The notes under the pieces were generated by a model. That model made no database searches. It had not been told where the DNA came from and was given only the letters and a program-made list of their open reading frames with translations. From a virus, in IMG/VR virus record IMGVR_UViG_3300046167_000921, positions 96,001 to 160,000 of that record: DNA of 64,000 bases. One strand, 5' to 3'. Positions 6,174 to 61,243 of this stretch are shown here, one piece after another. A program made the position numbers and the translations under genes. Each line of letters opens with the position of its first letter. The first letter of the stretch is position 1.

Positions 6174-7850
6174 TTAGAACCTACCGCCGTCTTCCTTCGG
6201 TTTCGAGTACTTCAGGTCGAGGTTTGAGGCAATTTTCTCTAAAACATCTGTGTTCTCAGCCATAGCTCTACCCGCTTCACCATAGACGCCTCGTAGAACT
6301 TCGTTGAATTGAGAATCGTTCAATGTCCACATATCACGCTCCAGCTTCGCTTTTGTAGTTACGGGGTCAACATTGAGCAGTTCTAGGATCACATCTATAT
6401 CAAGCGATCCCTTTTGGTAGAGGTTGAAGAGAGCATCGAATGTGTCTTGATTGTCTCTGAGTCCAAGACGGGTGAAGCTCAGGGTGGGGTGGAGTACGAC
6501 CTCTTCCCCATCTTCATCTTCCTCAATGAAACCCATACGTCTACACATAGGTTTGAGGATGTTCTCCTCGACCATCTCTTGGAGAACTTCCCTCATAAGC
6601 ATATAGCGAGTATTGATGACCTCTAGATTGATTCTATCTCCTGAGTAGCTGGACTCACCAGACAAGAGAGACTCAGTTACACCTAACCCTGCATACATCT
6701 GTCTGTCGGTCATGTCATATTCACCTGAGAGTTCGAGCAGGCGAGAGTCTGCTCCCATCTCTTCCCAACTAACTTGGAAGTTAGCGATGATAGAATAATC
6801 GGGGTCTTGGAGTGCAAGATCGACCTGCTCTCTGAGAGCTTCAACGTCATTTGCATCCATATCCTCTGCATACACAAGGCGGATAGGTGTCATATGCCTA
6901 GAGGCAATGGAGGTCTGAGCTTGCCTTAGCTTGTCCCTATAGACAAGAATGCGGAGACACCTTTCAAGCATAGAGTGTCCTCTGGGTTCATATTGTGATT
7001 TCTTCCTCGCCATGTAGTAGACAAATGAGCCTTCGTCAGGGTCTGTGTTAAGCCTGATGTTCCTGCCCTCTCGTATGGCTTCAACCACATCATCGGGCAT
7101 AGAGTCTACAATCCTTGTAGCGGAGGGGTCTTGTAAGGACGCTCTCTCAACAATGTCTTTTGTCTTGCTATCTGGGATAAGCTCAATGATCTTCTCACTT
7201 GTGAAGGGAAAGCTTTCCATGTGAACTTGCTCTGGAGGTAGGACTCTGATTCCCGTCCAGCCTTTATAGTTCTTTTTGAGCCAGCGGTACGCCCTTTCAT
7301 TTGAGTCTGGATATTCTTCCCACTCGATCACCGCCTCACCTGATTCTTTTAGGACGTTTCGTTCTCGGTGGGTTACTGACTTGGGCATATCTGGGTTGCT
7401 GTCCTCACAGAACACGAAGACCTCACCGAGGAGGTTGTATTCGTGCAGTATTTCTATGAGCCTATGAAGCAGTCCTGTCCTCCTAGACCACTTTTCACAG
7501 AAGCGTAGAGCTTCATTAGCCATGTCTCTATTACGAGATCGGGGCAACCCAAGTCTGATCTTAGAGAGAGGCAACTCTGTGTGTAGGTCTACCGCCTGTC
7601 CTACAAAAGGGTCGGTTCTGTAGAAGAATCTGAAATAGTTACGCTGCTCATCTTGGGATTGGGGTAACTCTAAGAAGTCTGTAGACAGTTCAGGTGAGTA
7701 GAAGTTTCCTCCTGAACCCATCATAGAACCAGAGGTGGTCATTGCGACTTTAACCCTAGACCGCATATCGCTTGGGTCGAGCTTCTTTGTGATCGCTTTA
7801 GACCTACTCTTGACTTTCCCTATTTCTGTGCCGAGATCCTCTTCACTCAT
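6174..7850 (-). CDS. putative portal protein
   Basis: 558 aa; FFYRTDPFVGQAVDLHTELPLS and RGHSMLERCLRILVYRDKLRQAQTSIASRHMTPIRLV resemble large-phage portal segments; same strand as the terminase. Confidence 0.7.
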   Translation of the reverse strand: MSEEDLGTEIGKVKSRSKAITKKLDPSDMRSRVKVAMTTSGSMMGSGGNFYSPELSTDFLELPQSQDEQRNYFRFFYRTDPFVGQAVDLHTELPLSKIRLGLPRSRNRDMANEALRFCEKWSRRTGLLHRLIEILHEYNLLGEVFVFCEDSNPDMPKSVTHRERNVLKESGEAVIEWEEYPDSNERAYRWLKKNYKGWTGIRVLPPEQVHMESFPFTSEKIIELIPDSKTKDIVERASLQDPSATRIVDSMPDDVVEAIREGRNIRLNTDPDEGSFVYYMARKKSQYEPRGHSMLERCLRILVYRDKLRQAQTSIASRHMTPIRLVYAEDMDANDVEALREQVDLALQDPDYSIIANFQVSWEEMGADSRLLELSGEYDMTDRQMYAGLGVTESLLSGESSYSGDRINLEVINTRYMLMREVLQEMVEENILKPMCRRMGFIEEDEDGEEVVLHPTLSFTRLGLRDNQDTFDALFNLYQKGSLDIDVILELLNVDPVTTKAKLERDMWTLNDSQFNEVLRGVYGEAGRAMAENTDVLEKIASNLDLKYSKPKEDGGRF

Positions 7851-54981: not shown

Positions 54982-56361
54982 ATGTCGTTACCTTTATTTA
55001 TACCCTCGGTCGAAGAAGTTCTGTCCCTTTTGATGAAAAGCCATGCCTCCTATGGGGGTACTGTGCTCATTTCAAGATCAGGTACGGTTTGGAATAACCC
55101 CTCTACAAAATCAATCCTTAATGCTTGGCACCCAAAAGACAGTGCTGGGAGACTACTGCAGACTTCTTTCTTAGATATTTGCGGAAATGGTGACGGTTGC
55201 AAGCTGGGGGTGTTCATAGCTTGCAGTTTGATTCGAGACTTTGTCAGGTTAGGGGAATCTGCTCACCCTGACCATACTGAGAAGGTGAAGAGGGCTTTGC
55301 CTTCAGTGCTTGACCGCATCCCCTCAGTACACGCCTCTGAAAATATTCTTCTAGATATCGGTGTGGGGGGAGGCTTGGATCTAGGTTCTGTGAGATCAGT
55401 CGCTGAAGCTCTAACTCTCTCTGGGGCTTCCTCTTCTCATATTTCATTAGAAAGAGGGAAGGGGGTAGGGATCGAAGTAGAAGAGTCGGACTCATGGGTT
55501 TCAAACACTAGAGTCCATCACGAATCCGAGGTCTATTTAAGTGGGGCTATGTTTGCCCTATTTTCCCGCCCCGTGTTTAAAGTTGAGCAAATTCTCAAGG
55601 CGTTAGAGAATATGGGCTCTTTCGAAGGAAGACCTTTAGTGGTAGTTGCACCCATTATTGGGTCAAAAGCTTTGTCTACGATCAATCTGAACCGTTCTAA
55701 GGGTGTCTTAGATGTCTACGCCTGTGAAGTTCCGCGTGTGACATGGGGTCGAGGCTGGTTAGACGATCTCGCATCCTTCACAGGAGCTACCGTATTTGAT
55801 GAGGGTGTCTATCCTGAATACCTTACAGAGTTCTTCGGTTCAGCCCTTGATGTTGTTTTGAACAGGCGTGAGATGGTGATCACCCCCTATGACGACCATA
55901 CAGAGAGTGCGTCTTTGAGGGCAGACGCTTTGTTGAGGGAAGCTCAGACAATACCTTTTGCACACACACAGGACTTGTGGAAGAAGAGAGCAAATGCGTT
56001 GACGGGTACCCTAGTTAAGATAAAAGTTGGCGGTGTAACTGAAGCGGAAGCACGCTGGAAAAGAGCATTAGTCGAGAAGTCTCTGACCTCTATGGGTGAT
56101 GCCTCCATAAATGGTTGTGTCAAAGGAGTTATACCTATGCTACACCAGCTACCTGTTGAGAACCCACTTCTCAAAAAAGCCCTTTCTTTCCCTTACGCAG
56201 TGGTTTGTGAAAACTATAATACCTCAATAGCAGATAAGAGTATGCTGACAAAACCTCACGCATACGACCACTTCCCTACGGGGAGGTTGAAAGAACTATT
56301 AACAAAAGCAGTTTCTGTGGCAACTACCGTAGGCTCTGTTTGTCACATCACAAGGCGGTGA
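54982..56361 (+). CDS. groEL: divergent GroEL/Cpn60-like chaperonin with degenerate ATP-binding motifs
   Basis: GNGDGCKLG (GDGTTT position), RPLVVVAP, LDDLASFTGATV, KIKVGGVTEAE, LLTKAVSVA; 459 aa. Confidence 0.85.
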   Translation: MSLPLFIPSVEEVLSLLMKSHASYGGTVLISRSGTVWNNPSTKSILNAWHPKDSAGRLLQTSFLDICGNGDGCKLGVFIACSLIRDFVRLGESAHPDHTEKVKRALPSVLDRIPSVHASENILLDIGVGGGLDLGSVRSVAEALTLSGASSSHISLERGKGVGIEVEESDSWVSNTRVHHESEVYLSGAMFALFSRPVFKVEQILKALENMGSFEGRPLVVVAPIIGSKALSTINLNRSKGVLDVYACEVPRVTWGRGWLDDLASFTGATVFDEGVYPEYLTEFFGSALDVVLNRREMVITPYDDHTESASLRADALLREAQTIPFAHTQDLWKKRANALTGTLVKIKVGGVTEAEARWKRALVEKSLTSMGDASINGCVKGVIPMLHQLPVENPLLKKALSFPYAVVCENYNTSIADKSMLTKPHAYDHFPTGRLKELLTKAVSVATTVGSVCHITRR

Positions 56362-56363
56362 CT

Positions 56364-56672
56364 ATGAACGTACCTTTGAGATACTCAATTCCCTTAGACG
56401 ATATCAACGGCATCAATGTAAGTATCGAGGCGTACAGCAAGGCTATATCTTTTTATGAAGAATGGGTGATAGAGAATGGGGAGTGGGAGTATGTAGAGGA
56501 GAGAATCCTGTACCTGACAAACATCCTCTGTGAGTATATGATTGCAGCATCTTTCGCCCAAGAGGGTGCTGTGGCTTGTGGGGTGGGTTCAGGTCTCTAT
56601 GAATCCGTAAAGAAAGACTTCCAGAAGAAACATCCTAACAGGGAGTTCCCGACACAGAGAGAGTTGCAATGA
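56364..56672 (+). CDS. hypothetical protein
   Basis: Start reassigned to ATG 56364, just after the groEL stop. Confidence 0.65.
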   Translation: MNVPLRYSIPLDDINGINVSIEAYSKAISFYEEWVIENGEWEYVEERILYLTNILCEYMIAASFAQEGAVACGVGSGLYESVKKDFQKKHPNREFPTQRELQ

Positions 56673-57346
56673 GGGTTGTCTGTATCTCTGACACGCACAA
56701 TCAACATAACAAGATAGACCTCCCCGAAGGTGATGTTTTAGTTCACTCTGGAGACTTCTCTGGAACAGGCACTCTCAAACAAGTCACCGATTTCATGGGG
56801 TGGTTTTCTTCACGTCCGCACCCACATAAGATCTTAGTTGCAGGTAACCATGACATTACTCTAGATCTACCTTTTTATGAAAACAATTGGCATAGATTCC
56901 ACAAAACCCGCTTATTTGCGAGTGGTATCAAGAACTTTGTTTTAAGGTCTGGTGTTCATTATTTAGAGAACAGCGGAGTCGAGATTCAAGGTGTCAAGTT
57001 TTATGGTAGTCCCTGCCAACCAACCTTCTGCAATTGGGCTTTCAATGTAGATAGGGGTCTTCCTATCCGCTCCGTTTGGTCTAAGATACCCGAAGATACA
57101 GATGTTCTGATTACGCACGGGCCTCCACGGGGCGTGGGTGACGTGTTACACACAGGAGAACCCGTGGGCTGTGACGACCTATGGGAGGCTGTAAAACGAG
57201 TAAGGCCTCAACATCATGTTTTTGGTCATATACACGAAGGTTACGGCTTATATATGATGGAGGGGATAAGCTTTGTTAACCCCTCCATCTGTGACCACAA
57301 GTATGGGATTGCAAATAAACCACTAGTCTTTGAGGTGTCGAGATGA
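56669..57346 (+). CDS. calcineurin-like metallophosphoesterase (MPPED/239FB type)
   Basis: CISDTH, HSGDF, VAGNHD, LITHGPP, FGHIHE. Confidence 0.92.
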   Translation: MRVVCISDTHNQHNKIDLPEGDVLVHSGDFSGTGTLKQVTDFMGWFSSRPHPHKILVAGNHDITLDLPFYENNWHRFHKTRLFASGIKNFVLRSGVHYLENSGVEIQGVKFYGSPCQPTFCNWAFNVDRGLPIRSVWSKIPEDTDVLITHGPPRGVGDVLHTGEPVGCDDLWEAVKRVRPQHHVFGHIHEGYGLYMMEGISFVNPSICDHKYGIANKPLVFEVSR

Positions 57347-57810
57347 ACCGAAAGCATTTAAAGTCACGCATACTACAATGCGACTTGATATCGTCGAACT
57401 CCCCATGTCCTCGGAGGAAGGTAGGTGCTCTCATAGTAGACCCTGAGAGCAACGTAGTGGTCAGTGAGGGTTACAATGGGACTCCAAGAGGGTCGCGGGA
57501 GAGTCTCTGCGGGGGTGATGTGTGTTTACGAGAGTGTAACTCCGTACTGAGTGGTACGTCTAATGACATAGGTTGCCACCACGCGGAGATGAATGCAATC
57601 TTAAACGCCGCTCGGGTAGGTCAATCAACTATGGGGAAGTGGCTTATAGCCAACTGCGACCCTTGCCTCATGTGTGCAAAGGCAATACACCACTCTGGTA
57701 TAAAGGCCGTTTACTGTCCTTCGGAAGTAAACGGGACTTTTGCACAAGGCCTAAGTTACCTAGAGAGGAACGGCGTTTCCACCTTTAAGATAAAGGAGGT
57801 AGGAGAATGA
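57343..57810 (+). CDS. dCMP deaminase (ComEB-like)
   Basis: CPRRKVGALIV, GYNG, HAEMNAI, PCLMCAKAI. Confidence 0.92.
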   Translation: MNRKHLKSRILQCDLISSNSPCPRRKVGALIVDPESNVVVSEGYNGTPRGSRESLCGGDVCLRECNSVLSGTSNDIGCHHAEMNAILNAARVGQSTMGKWLIANCDPCLMCAKAIHHSGIKAVYCPSEVNGTFAQGLSYLERNGVSTFKIKEVGE

Positions 57811-58022
57811 GTGAATATGAGAAAGTAGAACACCCAGACCACTACCAAAGTGAGAAGATCGAAGCCATAGACGTTATCGAGGCTTTCGAGCTCAACTTTT
57901 CTCTCGGGTCTGCGGTCAAATATATATTAAGAGCAGGTAAGAAGCCTACAGAGACCGCTGAAGAAGACCTAAGCAAAGCGGTTTGGTACATACAGCGAGA
58001 GATCCAGAGGAGGGGAGGATGA
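57807..58022 (+). CDS. DUF3310 protein (T7 gp1.7-like nucleotide kinase family)
   Basis: VEHPDHY...IEAIDVIEAF..NFSLGSAVKYILRAGKK...EDLSKAVWYI. Confidence 0.88.
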   Translation: MSEYEKVEHPDHYQSEKIEAIDVIEAFELNFSLGSAVKYILRAGKKPTETAEEDLSKAVWYIQREIQRRGG

Positions 58023-58627
58023 TCATCACAATACTTAGGAAACCCGTAGAGGGAACAGTAGCAGAAAACACTCTTAAGCATGGGTGTGGGGCTATAAATA
58101 TAGATGCCACACGCATCGGTGGGGGGGTTCCCCGTCAAGCGACTGCTGGAAATCGGACTGTAGGATGGGGGGTTCAAAAGGGAGGGTGTTCCTATGAGAA
58201 AGGGACTGGAGTAACCTTTACAAATCAAGGTAGATGGCCTGCTAACTTCATTCTTACCCACAACCACAAAGAGGACTGTGAATTAAAAGGCACGAAGAAG
58301 ATTAAAGAGGGTGAGGGTAAATCTGATAAAGGAGGCACTGAGCGAGAAGTAGGTCTTTACAAGGACGGGCTTAAGAAAAGAGCGAAAGACCACCATCAAG
58401 GAGAAGAAACTATACCTGATTGGGCTTGTGTAGAGGGTTGTCCTGTTAAGAATCTTGATAAACAAACAGGTGTCTTAGTTAGTGGTAAAGATGTAAACCC
58501 AACTAATTCAAACGTGAGTGGTTTCTTTGGTAAGACAGATAATTATTACTCCTCATCTGCGAACTGTGGAGATAGGGGGGGTGCTTCTAGGTTCTTCAAA
58601 CAGTTTAAGAAAGAGAATGATCAATGA
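58019..58627 (+). CDS. DNA methyltransferase middle segment (split MTase part 1 in gene order)
   Basis: LRKPVEGTVAENTLKHGCGAINIDATRI, GRWPAN, GGASRFF; ATGA-coupled. Confidence 0.82.
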   Translation: MIITILRKPVEGTVAENTLKHGCGAINIDATRIGGGVPRQATAGNRTVGWGVQKGGCSYEKGTGVTFTNQGRWPANFILTHNHKEDCELKGTKKIKEGEGKSDKGGTEREVGLYKDGLKKRAKDHHQGEETIPDWACVEGCPVKNLDKQTGVLVSGKDVNPTNSNVSGFFGKTDNYYSSSANCGDRGGASRFFKQFKKENDQ

Positions 58628-59178
58628 TTGAGATTAAAATAGGTGATTGCACACAACGATTAAAAGACCTAGAGGGCAACTCTGTAGACGCAATCATCTG
58701 CGACCCCCCTTATGGGCTAAAGTTTATGTCTAAAGGTTGGGACGACATAGGTAAAGGTTCTCAACAAAGGGAATGGCATAGAAAGTGGCTTACAGAGGCT
58801 CATCGAATCTTAAAACCTAATGGGTTGATTAAGGCATTTAGTGGAACTAGGACTTTTCATCACCTAATAGCGATGATGGAAGAAATAGGCTTCTCAGATT
58901 TACGGGTAGAGGCTTGGACTTATTCGTCAGGATTCCCGAAATCTCTTAACTTAAGTAAAGCACTAGAAAAAAATGGAACTCTGAAAATAGTAGGTCAAGG
59001 ACGAGCTGGTAAAAATGCTCTAGGTCAAGACAGTGGGTATAATAAAACATATAACCCACACACTTATGACATAGTAGAAGCAAATTCTGAAGGGGCTAAA
59101 ACTTGGGAGGGTTGGGGGACAGCTCTTAAGCCCGCTTGGGAGCCTATCTGTATTGGGGTTAAGCAAGGAAGTAACTGA
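58624..59178 (+). CDS. DNA amino-methyltransferase N-terminal catalytic segment (split MTase part 2)
   Basis: IGDC...DAIICDPPY (motif IV), ILKPNG, GTRTFH, SGFPKS, WGTALKPAWEPI. Confidence 0.9.
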   Translation: MIEIKIGDCTQRLKDLEGNSVDAIICDPPYGLKFMSKGWDDIGKGSQQREWHRKWLTEAHRILKPNGLIKAFSGTRTFHHLIAMMEEIGFSDLRVEAWTYSSGFPKSLNLSKALEKNGTLKIVGQGRAGKNALGQDSGYNKTYNPHTYDIVEANSEGAKTWEGWGTALKPAWEPICIGVKQGSN

Positions 59179-59867
59179 TGAAAGACATGATAGAATATTT
59201 CAAGACAATGATCACCCCCCCTGTAAAGGATGCTTGTGTCATTGTGAGTAAACCTAGCGAGATCAACTTTGAAAGCTACCTAGAAGAGGTTTTTGAAGAG
59301 GGGGCTATTGCCTCCTCTCTCCAACCAAAAGCTCACGGTGTCATCCTGCTAGGAGAGCCTACAAAAGAGGAGTCTCAGAAGATTCAAGACATACTCAAAC
59401 CCGGAGGTCACGTAGTCCTAATCCCCGACTCAGATATTGGGTACAAGGGGGTAATCGCCCTTGAGGACACAGGCTTTGAGGTACGAGATGCGATCTTTGT
59501 GGCAGAAGAGGCAGATAGCTTCTATTACACGTCAAAGGCGAGTAGGTCAGAGAGAGAAGCGGGCTTGGTTGCGGAAGAAGGGAAGAGGGGTAACGTTCAC
59601 CCTACGGTCAAGCCTATTGAGATTATGGAGTGGTGTGCTAGAGGCATAGAGGCAAGCTCTACTATAGTAGACCCTTTTATGGGGTCTGGTACTACAGGGA
59701 TTGCAATGTCTCGAAAAGGTCACAACTTCATTGGTATAGAGTTGAACCCAGAGTATGCACAGATCTCAGAGCAGAGGATTCGTCATTGGAAGCCTATTGA
59801 CACTGAGATCAAGTCAGAGGCGAAGCCTGTTGACACTGAGTTCAAGGGTCAGGTTTCTCTTTTTTAG
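59178..59867 (+). CDS. DNA methyltransferase SAM-binding C-terminal segment with a degenerate extra N-terminal copy (split MTase part 3)
   Basis: FYYTSKASRSERE, HPTVKP, DPFMGSGTTG (motif I), FIGIELN; upstream ILKPGGHV...EDTGFEVRDAI. Confidence 0.9.
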   Translation: MKDMIEYFKTMITPPVKDACVIVSKPSEINFESYLEEVFEEGAIASSLQPKAHGVILLGEPTKEESQKIQDILKPGGHVVLIPDSDIGYKGVIALEDTGFEVRDAIFVAEEADSFYYTSKASRSEREAGLVAEEGKRGNVHPTVKPIEIMEWCARGIEASSTIVDPFMGSGTTGIAMSRKGHNFIGIELNPEYAQISEQRIRHWKPIDTEIKSEAKPVDTEFKGQVSLF

Positions 59868-61243
59868 AACTCGTCGTCCATGTCATAACCCATGAGGTCT
59901 TCCTCATAACCCATGTGGTCGTCCATCATAGCCATGAGTTCCTGATCTTCACTCATGTGGTCATACATACCCATGTGTTCTTCCTCATTGCTCTCTACCT
60001 CTTCACCGTAGAGACCCTCGACAAAACGAGATGCGACGCGACGACCCGCTGTTGGGTTATGGTATGCCCTCCGAGTTACGAACTTCCTTAACTTTCTTCC
60101 GAAGCTCATGTCCAGCTTTGTTCTCTTGTCAGTCTTGATGTTCTTAAGCGTGACGTTTGAGAGATCTACGCCAGAGAGATCTGCCCCTCTAAGATCTGCA
60201 CCTGTAAGATCCGCACCGTCGATAGAAAGAACGCCTGTGAGATCCGCACCGTCAAGATTCGCACCCCTTAACTTCGCATCTGTCAGATCCGCACCTTCGA
60301 AATTGCTTCCGTCAGAGAGATCTGCTTCTATAAGGATTGTGTTTCTCATCTTAGCGTTTGTGAAATCTCCGCCCTTAAGTTTACAAGATTTCATGTTAGC
60401 ACGATTAAAGTTAGTTCCTACAAAAGATCCGTTTTCTGCAGAAGACCCTTCAAGATTTGCACCCTCGAAAATGAGAGATTCTAAGTTCGCCAGATTTCCA
60501 AACGAGCCTGAATAGGTGATCCTGCTAAGATCTGTCCTCATTGAGAAGGTACACCCTTCGAGAGCCCCTTCGTCTTCAAATTCGATGCCCACAAGGTCGG
60601 TTTTTTTAAATGAAGTGCCATTGACGCTGTGGATCTTCTTAACTCCAATGAAACTGCATTCTTCAACCTCACCATTCATGATGACAACGTTTGTCAGATC
60701 CGCGTGGTTAAAGATGACTCTCTCAAGACCATCAGCGGTTGCCATGTTCGCGTTCGCCATAGTTGCTCTGGTAAAGTTAGCTCCCCTCAAAACAGTATTG
60801 TTTATGTTTGTGAAGTTAAGGTTAGCCCCTACGAACTGTGCCATCGTAAGATCGGCATTTTCGAAATTAGCCATGCCTATCCTGAGGCCACTAAAATTAG
60901 ACCTCTCCAATTCACAGTCAGAAAAATTCGTATGGGACACAGTCACAAGCCCCTTAATCTTGGTGAAGTCCCTCTGGTTGAGGTTCATATCAGAGAGATC
61001 CGCACTAGGGATGTATTTACCTAGCTTTTCAATGATATCGGGATCTTCCTTTTTTTTGTAATTGATGTAATTTTTGAGTGCCTTATCATCCTTTTTACTT
61101 TTTTTCAATGCTTCAAGGAGTACTTGCTCTTGCTCTTCATCCTCTAACCCAGCCTGGCGTGCGGCGGCTCTCCTCACCCTGTTAAGGTAAGCTCTTCTCT
61201 TCATTGCGAGTTGTTTCTGAACTCTTCGTGATGCTCGTCTCAT
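59864..61243 (-). CDS. pentapeptide-repeat protein with basic N-terminus, RRVASRF tag and acidic Met-rich tail
   Basis: Start reassigned to ATG 61243 behind AAGGAG; A(D/N)(L/F)xx repeats; MSFGRKLRKFVTRRAY...GRRVASRFV. Confidence 0.9.
   Translation of the reverse strand: MRRASRRVQKQLAMKRRAYLNRVRRAAARQAGLEDEEQEQVLLEALKKSKKDDKALKNYINYKKKEDPDIIEKLGKYIPSADLSDMNLNQRDFTKIKGLVTVSHTNFSDCELERSNFSGLRIGMANFENADLTMAQFVGANLNFTNINNTVLRGANFTRATMANANMATADGLERVIFNHADLTNVVIMNGEVEECSFIGVKKIHSVNGTSFKKTDLVGIEFEDEGALEGCTFSMRTDLSRITYSGSFGNLANLESLIFEGANLEGSSAENGSFVGTNFNRANMKSCKLKGGDFTNAKMRNTILIEADLSDGSNFEGADLTDAKLRGANLDGADLTGVLSIDGADLTGADLRGADLSGVDLSNVTLKNIKTDKRTKLDMSFGRKLRKFVTRRAYHNPTAGRRVASRFVEGLYGEEVESNEEEHMGMYDHMSEDQELMAMMDDHMGYEEDLMGYDMDDEF

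Follow-up and report, generated by a model that had tools for sequence, protein, structure and literature searches.

The closest described relatives of the locus reported here are the phrog_67-type single-chain phage beta-class N6A/N4C DNA methyltransferases (MTases). They have the same segments, motifs (DPPY, GRWPAN, SRFF, HPTVKP and DPFxGSG) and Pfam family as three consecutive open reading frames (ORF1, ORF2 and ORF3) in a 64,000-nt stretch of DNA, hereafter the window, that comes from a large uncultured marine phage and is part of a 177-kb IMG/VR record estimated to be 57% complete. In contrast to the phrog_67-type enzymes, the window encodes three polypeptides in a non-colinear gene order, called here middle (ORF1), N (ORF2) and C (ORF3) after the segments of the single chain. 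The C subunit bears an additional degenerate MTase-like domain of 114 residues, and in relatives of the window one C gene is accompanied by several N and middle genes. In our view the locus probably encodes a functional heteromeric beta-class (PF01555) MTase with exchangeable specificity parts, which would most likely methylate the phage's own DNA against host restriction; as relatives carry the parts in varying numbers, orders and fusions, it resembles a functioning set of interchangeable enzyme parts more than a gene in decay.

A two-part split is implied by phrog_6025 (the N half alone) together with phrog_3008 (a short middle plus the C half), with the N/middle break placed as in the window; here, however, the middle and the C half are also separate, and the degenerate domain (3a) stands between them in sequence terms. 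Our literature search returned no experimental description of phrog_6025-type or phrog_3008-type split forms. The dimeric enzymes M.RsrI, CcrM, M1.HpyAVI, M.BceJIV, M.MboIIA and M.PvuII match the window in the sequence and fold of both halves, but they are single-chain homodimers with neither a separate target recognition domain (TRD) subunit nor an in-cis pseudo-domain. In Type I HsdM/HsdS, specificity lies in exchangeable, recombining recognition modules, and in the multispecific C5 MTases of Bacillus phages several recognition modules serve one catalytic core. By comparison with both, the window and its relatives divide the catalytic fold itself, and relatives multiply the catalytic half as well. 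The likeness to HsdS is a functional analogy only; ORF1 gave no sequence match in Pfam or PDB, and its model was of low confidence. Active two-subunit MTases made of separately encoded fragments of the catalytic fold are known in M.AquI and M.EcoHK31I (PMC3404938), although these are of the C5-cytosine class, have two parts instead of three and show no arrays or exchangeable cassettes. The literature search likewise found no three-part beta-class enzyme, no N/recognition arrays sharing one S-adenosylmethionine (SAM) subunit and no permutation series of the kind described below.

All three ORFs lie on the plus strand. ORF1 (58019-58627, 202 aa) is the segment found between motif VIII and motif X in single-chain relatives, ORF2 (58624-59178, 184 aa) is the catalytic half, which carries motifs IV-VIII as well as a beta-7 strand of its own (WEPICIGVK), and ORF3 (59178-59867, 229 aa) comprises ORF3a (residues 1-114) followed by ORF3b (residues 115-229 plus the stop codon). 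Each start overlaps the preceding stop: an ATGA at 58019-58022 joins a DUF3310-like ORF to ORF1, with GGAGGGGAGG directly before it, a second ATGA at 58624-58627 joins ORF1 to ORF2, and a TGATG at 59176-59180, directly preceded by AAGGAAG, joins ORF2 to ORF3. A purine-rich stretch stands ahead of all three junctions. A sequence-only reading of this DNA had described three translationally coupled ORFs in the genomic order middle, N, C, joined by ATGA/TGATG couplings rather than frameshift scars. The ORF calls and the tiling on a single chain bear out the former, and for the latter the pieces proved to be conserved, coupled and under purifying selection. Programmed frameshifting was weighed as a route to a fused protein and discarded: ATGA coupling signals of the ordinary kind, accompanied by Shine-Dalgarno-like sequences, make up the overlaps, and a conserved Met starts each part. 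No second copy of ORF1, ORF2 or ORF3 was found in the rest of the 177-kb record.

ORF2 residues 21-111 match positions 1-95 of the PF01555 (N6_N4_Mtase) profile with 55.4 bits and ORF3 residues 131-198 match positions 159-220 with 61.0 bits (cut-off, 26.7 bits), each spanning a part of the profile that does not overlap the other. The same two proteins are matched by phrog_67 (E 5e-33 and E 7.5e-24, respectively), and ORF2 further matches phrog_6025 over 12-190 of its 192 positions. ORF1 had no match in Pfam and no sequence match in PDB; it matches phrog_3008, with ORF1 and ORF3 at opposite ends of that family. Among the three ORFs, motif IV DPPY (residues 27-30, 58702-58713) is confined to ORF2, and both motif X HPTVKP (59598-59615) and motif I DPFMGSGTTG (59670-59699), which are invariant across 47 homologues, are confined to the 3b part of ORF3. 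With DPPY restricted to ORF2 and FxGxG to ORF3, neither of the two, to judge by these motifs, can work alone. A DNA search of GenBank phages with the region gave no match, and GenBank cultured phages held no ORF3-like protein above 40% identity, the best match being partial and at 40%.

The relation to single-chain enzymes is most directly seen by tblastn on a 515-aa chain from an uncultured 485-kb phage (LR745208.1, L001:3392-4939), on which ORF2 covers approximately aa 21-200, ORF1 approximately aa 204-400 and ORF3 residues 115-205 approximately aa 399-481. In this alignment to a single-chain MTase, a check proposed in the sequence-only reading, the tiling is colinear and leaves no gaps; tblastn tiling was also obtained on L002. 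Since ORF2, ORF1 and ORF3 fall on successive segments of the single chain, the genomic order is middle, N, C. Mycobacterium phage Pollywog gp67 and the 515-aa chain carry these segments in the order N, middle, C, and phrog_67-type enzymes hold them in one frame. Instead of the motif order IV-VIII, TRD, X, I on one polypeptide, the window has three polypeptides with the gene order TRD-like, IV-VIII, X-I, with N, middle and C segments all present and homologous. The breaks are KPAWEPI/RKP and SRFF/FYY, at the conserved EPIxxARKP and SRFFY motifs where they had been placed from sequence. At each break the flanking strand is copied on both sides: ORF2 ends in WEPICIGVK and ORF1 starts with MIITILRKP, ORF1 ends in GGASRFF and ORF3 continues with SFYYTSKAS.

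ORF3a (59178-59519) is a conserved degenerate MTase-like domain. It opens with a motif-X-like helix (MIEYFKTMITPP), after which HGVILLGEPT replaces the DPPY strand and is followed by ILKPGGH and GFEVRDAIFV; the GEPT at the strand equivalent to motif IV is degenerate, and neither DPPY nor FxGxG is present. Conservation of 3a equals that of the remaining ORF3. Its homology was assessed by hidden Markov model searches of single-chain enzymes with reversed-sequence controls: the profile of residues 1-114 matches 90 of 90 enzymes just after DPPY, at up to 29 bits (reversed sequences, ≤0.1), over a segment comprising helix D, strand 5, helix E and strand 6. In 19 of 21 secondary matches, individually insignificant (≤3.4 bits), positions 3-15 (DMIEYFKTMITPP) fall on the helix just before motif I. 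A comparison of 3a with N by hhalign, on shallow local alignments, aligned 13 columns and was nearly blind. ORF3b (59520-59867) is the SAM-binding half, with FYYTSKAS, motif X, motif I, NFIGIE and a tail ending in VSLF.

An AlphaFold model of ORF3 built on a 47-sequence alignment (predicted local distance difference test, pLDDT, 84; predicted template modelling score, pTM, 0.62) has two units. Residues 1-106 superpose on ordinary-order class-I MTase folds (PrmA, Z 7, root-mean-square deviation 2.3 Å over 87 residues) and residues 103-216 on the C-terminal part of CcrM, M.RsrI, M.BceJIV and M1.HpyAVI (Z 6.7-7.6). Foldseek relates the model to beta-class enzymes with a probability of 1.0 and a template modelling score of only 0.25-0.37 to whole enzymes; therefore, the two domains of the model are not placed as in the canonical single domain, and how the two units lie relative to each other is uncertain. 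At the start of ORF3 the sequence-only reading had seen a degenerate C-terminal piece (C') followed by a degenerate N-terminal copy (N'), a description with which the 3a profile and the model agree, the C' match being the weak one given above.

By its place in the alignments, ORF1 is at the canonical TRD position of beta-class enzymes. Aligned with its relatives, it shows four conserved framework blocks between three variable segments, V1 (residues 34-70, 58118-58228, of a type unique among the 16 full-length middles compared), V2 (residues 97-133, 58307-58417) and V3 (residues 151-186, 58469-58576), and V1, V2 and V3 types reassort freely among middles. Contig L021 is 98.4% identical to the window over 4 kb on each side of a cassette of approximately 290 bp (58111-58399, V1 plus V2) and unrelated to it inside, except for the GRWPAN block (58229-58307), which aligns at 78%. 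The cassette marks a clean, recent recombinational swap of ORF1 V1 and V2. In N subunits, the first 107 residues are almost invariant and are followed by a hypervariable insert of approximately 54 residues and a conserved end. The insert of the window lies between GFPKS and EGWGTALKP (58945-59106) and is of the same type as those in L026:1598-2146 and L050:3587-4135. Module copies inside one array have exact stretches of 30-72 nt in common, long enough for homologous recombination.

The framework blocks of ORF1 and its homologues contain conserved Cys/His residues (HGCG, E.CELKG, DWACVEGCP; 58085-58441 in the window, residues 23, 87, 137 and 141), which may form a structural zinc site that keeps the variable loops in place. 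Part of this Cys/His set is missing from short middles. A chimeric cistron at L026:2143-2655 has a middle-like N-terminal part and approximately 47 C-terminal residues that are 55% identical to ORF2 residues 137-181; it is likely a recombination product between module types.

Two IMG/VR scans, in which every ORF was classified, returned approximately 50 loci from approximately 25 distinct jumbo-phage contigs, many of them 170-375 kb long. Arrays consist of 1-4 N cistrons and 1-4 middle cistrons in variable order, mostly ATGA-joined, and are closed by a single ORF3 in all loci except one distant relative (L017). DPPY is present in every N and DPF[LM]GSG in every ORF3 of these contigs. The commonest arrangement is the colinear N-middle-ORF3 (L006, L030 and three further contigs, L038, L044). 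Others are N-N-middle-ORF3 (L040), middle-N-middle-ORF3 (L023, L037 and L041), N-middle-middle-N-middle-middle-ORF3 (L027) and middle-N-middle-N-N-middle-N-(dCMP deaminase)-ORF3 (L022/L029). The order of the window, middle-N-ORF3 or middle-N-(inserted genes)-ORF3, is also seen in L021, L046 and L048. N stands immediately before ORF3 in L022/L029, L046 and L048 as well, with or without inserted deaminase/DUF3310 genes; these genes at times inserted before ORF3, dCMP deaminase and DUF3310, are those found just upstream in the window.

Of the ORF3 clusters formed at 90% identity, at least 120 span most or all of the query. Pairwise ratios of nonsynonymous to synonymous substitution rates (dN/dS) are 0.06-0.15 for ORF3, 0.06-0.26 for N and 0.18-0.33 for the middle, so that all three parts are under purifying selection. 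The sequence-only reading had named conservation of the order in related phages as a check, and the window's order does recur in independent contigs, among them the 14.7-kb L021, as a minority state. It had also named outcomes that would count against it. As far as sequence data go, the recurrence refutes an assembly rearrangement, and N and ORF3, at the ratios just given, are under purifying rather than relaxed selection.

Inteins were observed in several relatives, in N at YG|SGFPKS and in ORF3 at HP|TVKP (L036:2238-4004, L034:4644-6560 and L017:1693-3528; proteins P0125-P0127, P0202, P0154 and P0258), with Cys first, HN or GN last and then Thr or Ser. Such placement in conserved motifs is usual in functional proteins and counts in favour of a working enzyme. 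Two related phages have a conserved ORF of approximately 148 aa between the middle cistron and ORF3 (L035:4675-5121 and L045:4396-4839) that is unlike the other modules. Just downstream of the array in L034, a small ordinary single-chain MTase (6791-7585, SPPY, DPFAGSG, 264 aa) was found; some of these phages therefore carry conventional enzymes in addition.

The wider family was explored by searching the 3a profile against 1.84 billion representative proteins, which gave 278 clusters (50% identity) at E ≤ 0.001 and 152 at E ≤ 1e-10. Domain architectures were classified for the best 150 of the 278: middle-3a-3b accounts for 73 and 3a-3b for 60, followed by 3a only (6), 3a-3b-N (5; P0131, P0170, P0288, P0202 and P0154), middle-3a (3), N-middle-3a-3b (2; P0252 and P0354) and middle-3a-3b-N (1; P0264). 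Fusions of the middle to ORF3 also occur within the clade of the window (L025; P0009, P0010, P0016 and others), and in an unrooted FastTree of 3a-3b the middle changes between fused and separate states approximately 40 times, of which well-supported branches force at least 12. Frequent middle-ORF3 fusions tie the middle to ORF3, and the existence of natural 3b-N fusions, in a Rosetta-stone sense, pairs N with 3b; the 3b-N join restores the motif order X-I-II-(III)-IV-VIII of a complete permuted enzyme. In P0252, motif IV (position 28) comes before motif I (487), and in P0264 motif I (position 350) comes before motif IV (452). By motif order, then, the N-middle-3a-3b and middle-3a-3b-N chains are natural circular permutants. 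A pattern scan for 3a in 185,579 prokaryote species genomes found no relative, weak evidence given that the patterns are clade-specific.

From these data a mechanism can be proposed. ORF2 would supply the catalytic half of the Rossmann fold (beta-3 to beta-7, with DPPY) and ORF3b the SAM-binding half (motif X, FxGxG, beta-1/beta-2), the two together rebuilding the active site, while ORF1 would supply the target-recognition region that is located between the two halves in single-chain relatives. The 3a domain would probably be a catalytically dead MTase-like scaffold, either a docking platform for ORF1, an in-cis stand-in for the second protomer, or both. Beta-class enzymes reportedly work as dimers whose two subunits divide the labour (PMC7544214), and because a second protomer is reportedly needed, a pseudo-protomer role of 3a would be reasonable. 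Specificity would be set by the ORF1 variable segments and the ORF2 insert; homologous recombination at the conserved blocks of the framework would exchange V1-V3 and the N insert and so, presumably, alter or multiply target specificity, and an array would equip its phage with several specificities against host restriction, or with a store of them. As separate polypeptides from one coupled operon, the parts give the middle-N-C gene order no special meaning; it is one state of a recombining cassette array. The best reading of the family is that it evolves by repeated fission, fusion and reordering. We also advance, tentatively and as a somewhat doubtful extension, that the arrays form a combinatorial multispecific system, in which several N and several middle subunits can each complete one shared ORF3 in trans, so that a phage with n N genes and m middle genes could methylate up to n x m targets and reprogram them by cassette recombination, and that the family is the first natural fission-reordering-refusion permutation series of a DNA methyltransferase with all intermediates extant.

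Several observations weigh against such a heteromer. N and middle cistron counts are unequal in several arrays, a simple 1:1:1 pairing not being evident, and N is never fused to another part within the window's own clade. When a middle-ORF3 fusion (L025:4001-5431) was folded, its middle had a pLDDT of 30-50 and the model was informative for the two ORF3 domains only; docking and DNA reading by the middle are thus putative roles. The structural matches of 3a are middling (Z ~7), and a common Rossmann-like arrangement could give such scores. ORF3 residues 17-206 align colinearly to small complete beta-class enzymes (cyanophage Syn9, 26% identity), and 3a, self-contained in the AlphaFold model, could instead pack on 3b and leave N partnerless.

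Several other explanations were weighed against a working heteromer with exchangeable parts. The sequence-only reading had proposed a trapped intermediate of circular permutation by tandem duplication and truncation, with the middle-N-C order as its footprint. Part of this stood: the C'-N'-C layout of ORF3 (a degenerate C-like helix, a degenerate N-like half and a real C half) is that expected at the C-N junction of a tandem duplicate, a heteromer is sensible and true permutants exist in the family. Partially duplicated intermediates are described for DNA methyltransferases in PMC3320104 (citing Jeltsch 1999) and PMC5944983, and ORF3 does hold the partial second fold copy within one gene that the Jeltsch model calls for, again with the weak C' match. 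The part that fell was the order as a frozen duplication-truncation step, for cistron order varies freely among relatives and the colinear arrangement is the commonest. The 3a domain is ancient, widespread (the 278 clusters) and strongly conserved, hence not transitional; no tandem full-length duplicates were present among the loci examined, and the state is not a transitional, lineage-restricted one. Moreover, the permuted single chains differ in the attachment of the whole N half, as fission-fusion of separate genes predicts. For fission-fusion permutation one looks for halves that are independent in some lineages and fused in both orders elsewhere (PMC3320104); N is separate in the window and in approximately 25 contigs, and N-middle-3a-3b, middle-3a-3b-N and 3a-3b-N chains exist. 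Duplication-truncation is the model usually cited for methyltransferases (PMC5944983) and may account for the origin of 3a itself, but for the permutants the sequence comparisons suggest fission-fusion as the better fit. We regard the locus as quite unlikely to be a trapped intermediate.

A cassette reservoir, in which one N and one middle are used at a time, the others are spare as in silent hsdS genes and the window's order is a recent switch, would accommodate the swap between near-identical genomes, the mosaic variable segments, the long exact repeats between module copies and the several short or truncated middles (103-148 aa). It remains unlikely in our judgement, each module being intact and translationally coupled with its own ATG, DPPY being kept in all N copies, dN/dS being low for all copies compared and the window having exactly one of each part with none to spare. 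Doubtful to a greater degree is a reading in which the middle plus ORF3 make a protein that binds DNA and SAM without catalysis, serving as a regulator or restriction decoy, and ORF2 has a separate role. The prevalence of the middle-ORF3 fusion as the commonest architecture, the loss of DPPY from ORF3 and the unfused N of the window's clade would all suit it; yet N cistrons always accompany ORF3 in arrays, N is without any SAM-binding motif and cannot act alone, and the 3a-3b-N, N-middle-3a-3b and middle-3a-3b-N chains unite the parts in one protein. Fragmented MTase genes are common in annotation and the same ORF3 is absent from GenBank cultured phages (best match partial, as noted), as might be expected of decaying gene fragments or an assembly rearrangement. 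This we find barely credible for a locus with clean overlaps, no stray frames, an order recurring in independent contigs from other samples, purifying selection and intact catalytic and SAM motifs.

If the subunits assemble as we infer, the locus would be a natural three-component MTase with catalysis, cofactor binding and target reading on separate, swappable proteins. This would account for the ability of large marine phages to keep up with the variety of restriction systems in their hosts, would offer a ready-made scaffold for programmable methylation and would provide living intermediates for the debated origin of permuted MTase motif orders, by duplication-truncation or by fission-fusion. 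Automatic annotation labels such genes as fragments or 'hypothetical', so that the methylation capacity of uncultured phages is under-counted.

The C-terminus of ORF3 proteins is a conserved tail, (I/V)S(I/L)FD(L/I)F, of which the window version is VSLF (59853-59864). A SNF2-family helicase in the same genome (G000:C1:55200-57365, L056) ends in QLESIFPDLF. Both tails resemble the clamp-binding C-terminal tail of T4/RB69 DNA polymerase, and by this analogy ORF3 and the helicase might both dock on the sliding clamp.

A promoter/terminator scan of 55500-60500 returned no site above chance. The three ORFs close a run of seven successive plus-strand genes (56340-59867) with overlaps of 4 nt and a final junction of 1 nt: an unknown gene, a metallophosphoesterase-like gene, dCMP deaminase, DUF3310, ORF1, ORF2 and ORF3. 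Deaminase, DUF3310 and phosphoesterase genes also sit within the MTase arrays of relatives L022, L023, L028, L046, L048, L050 and L051.

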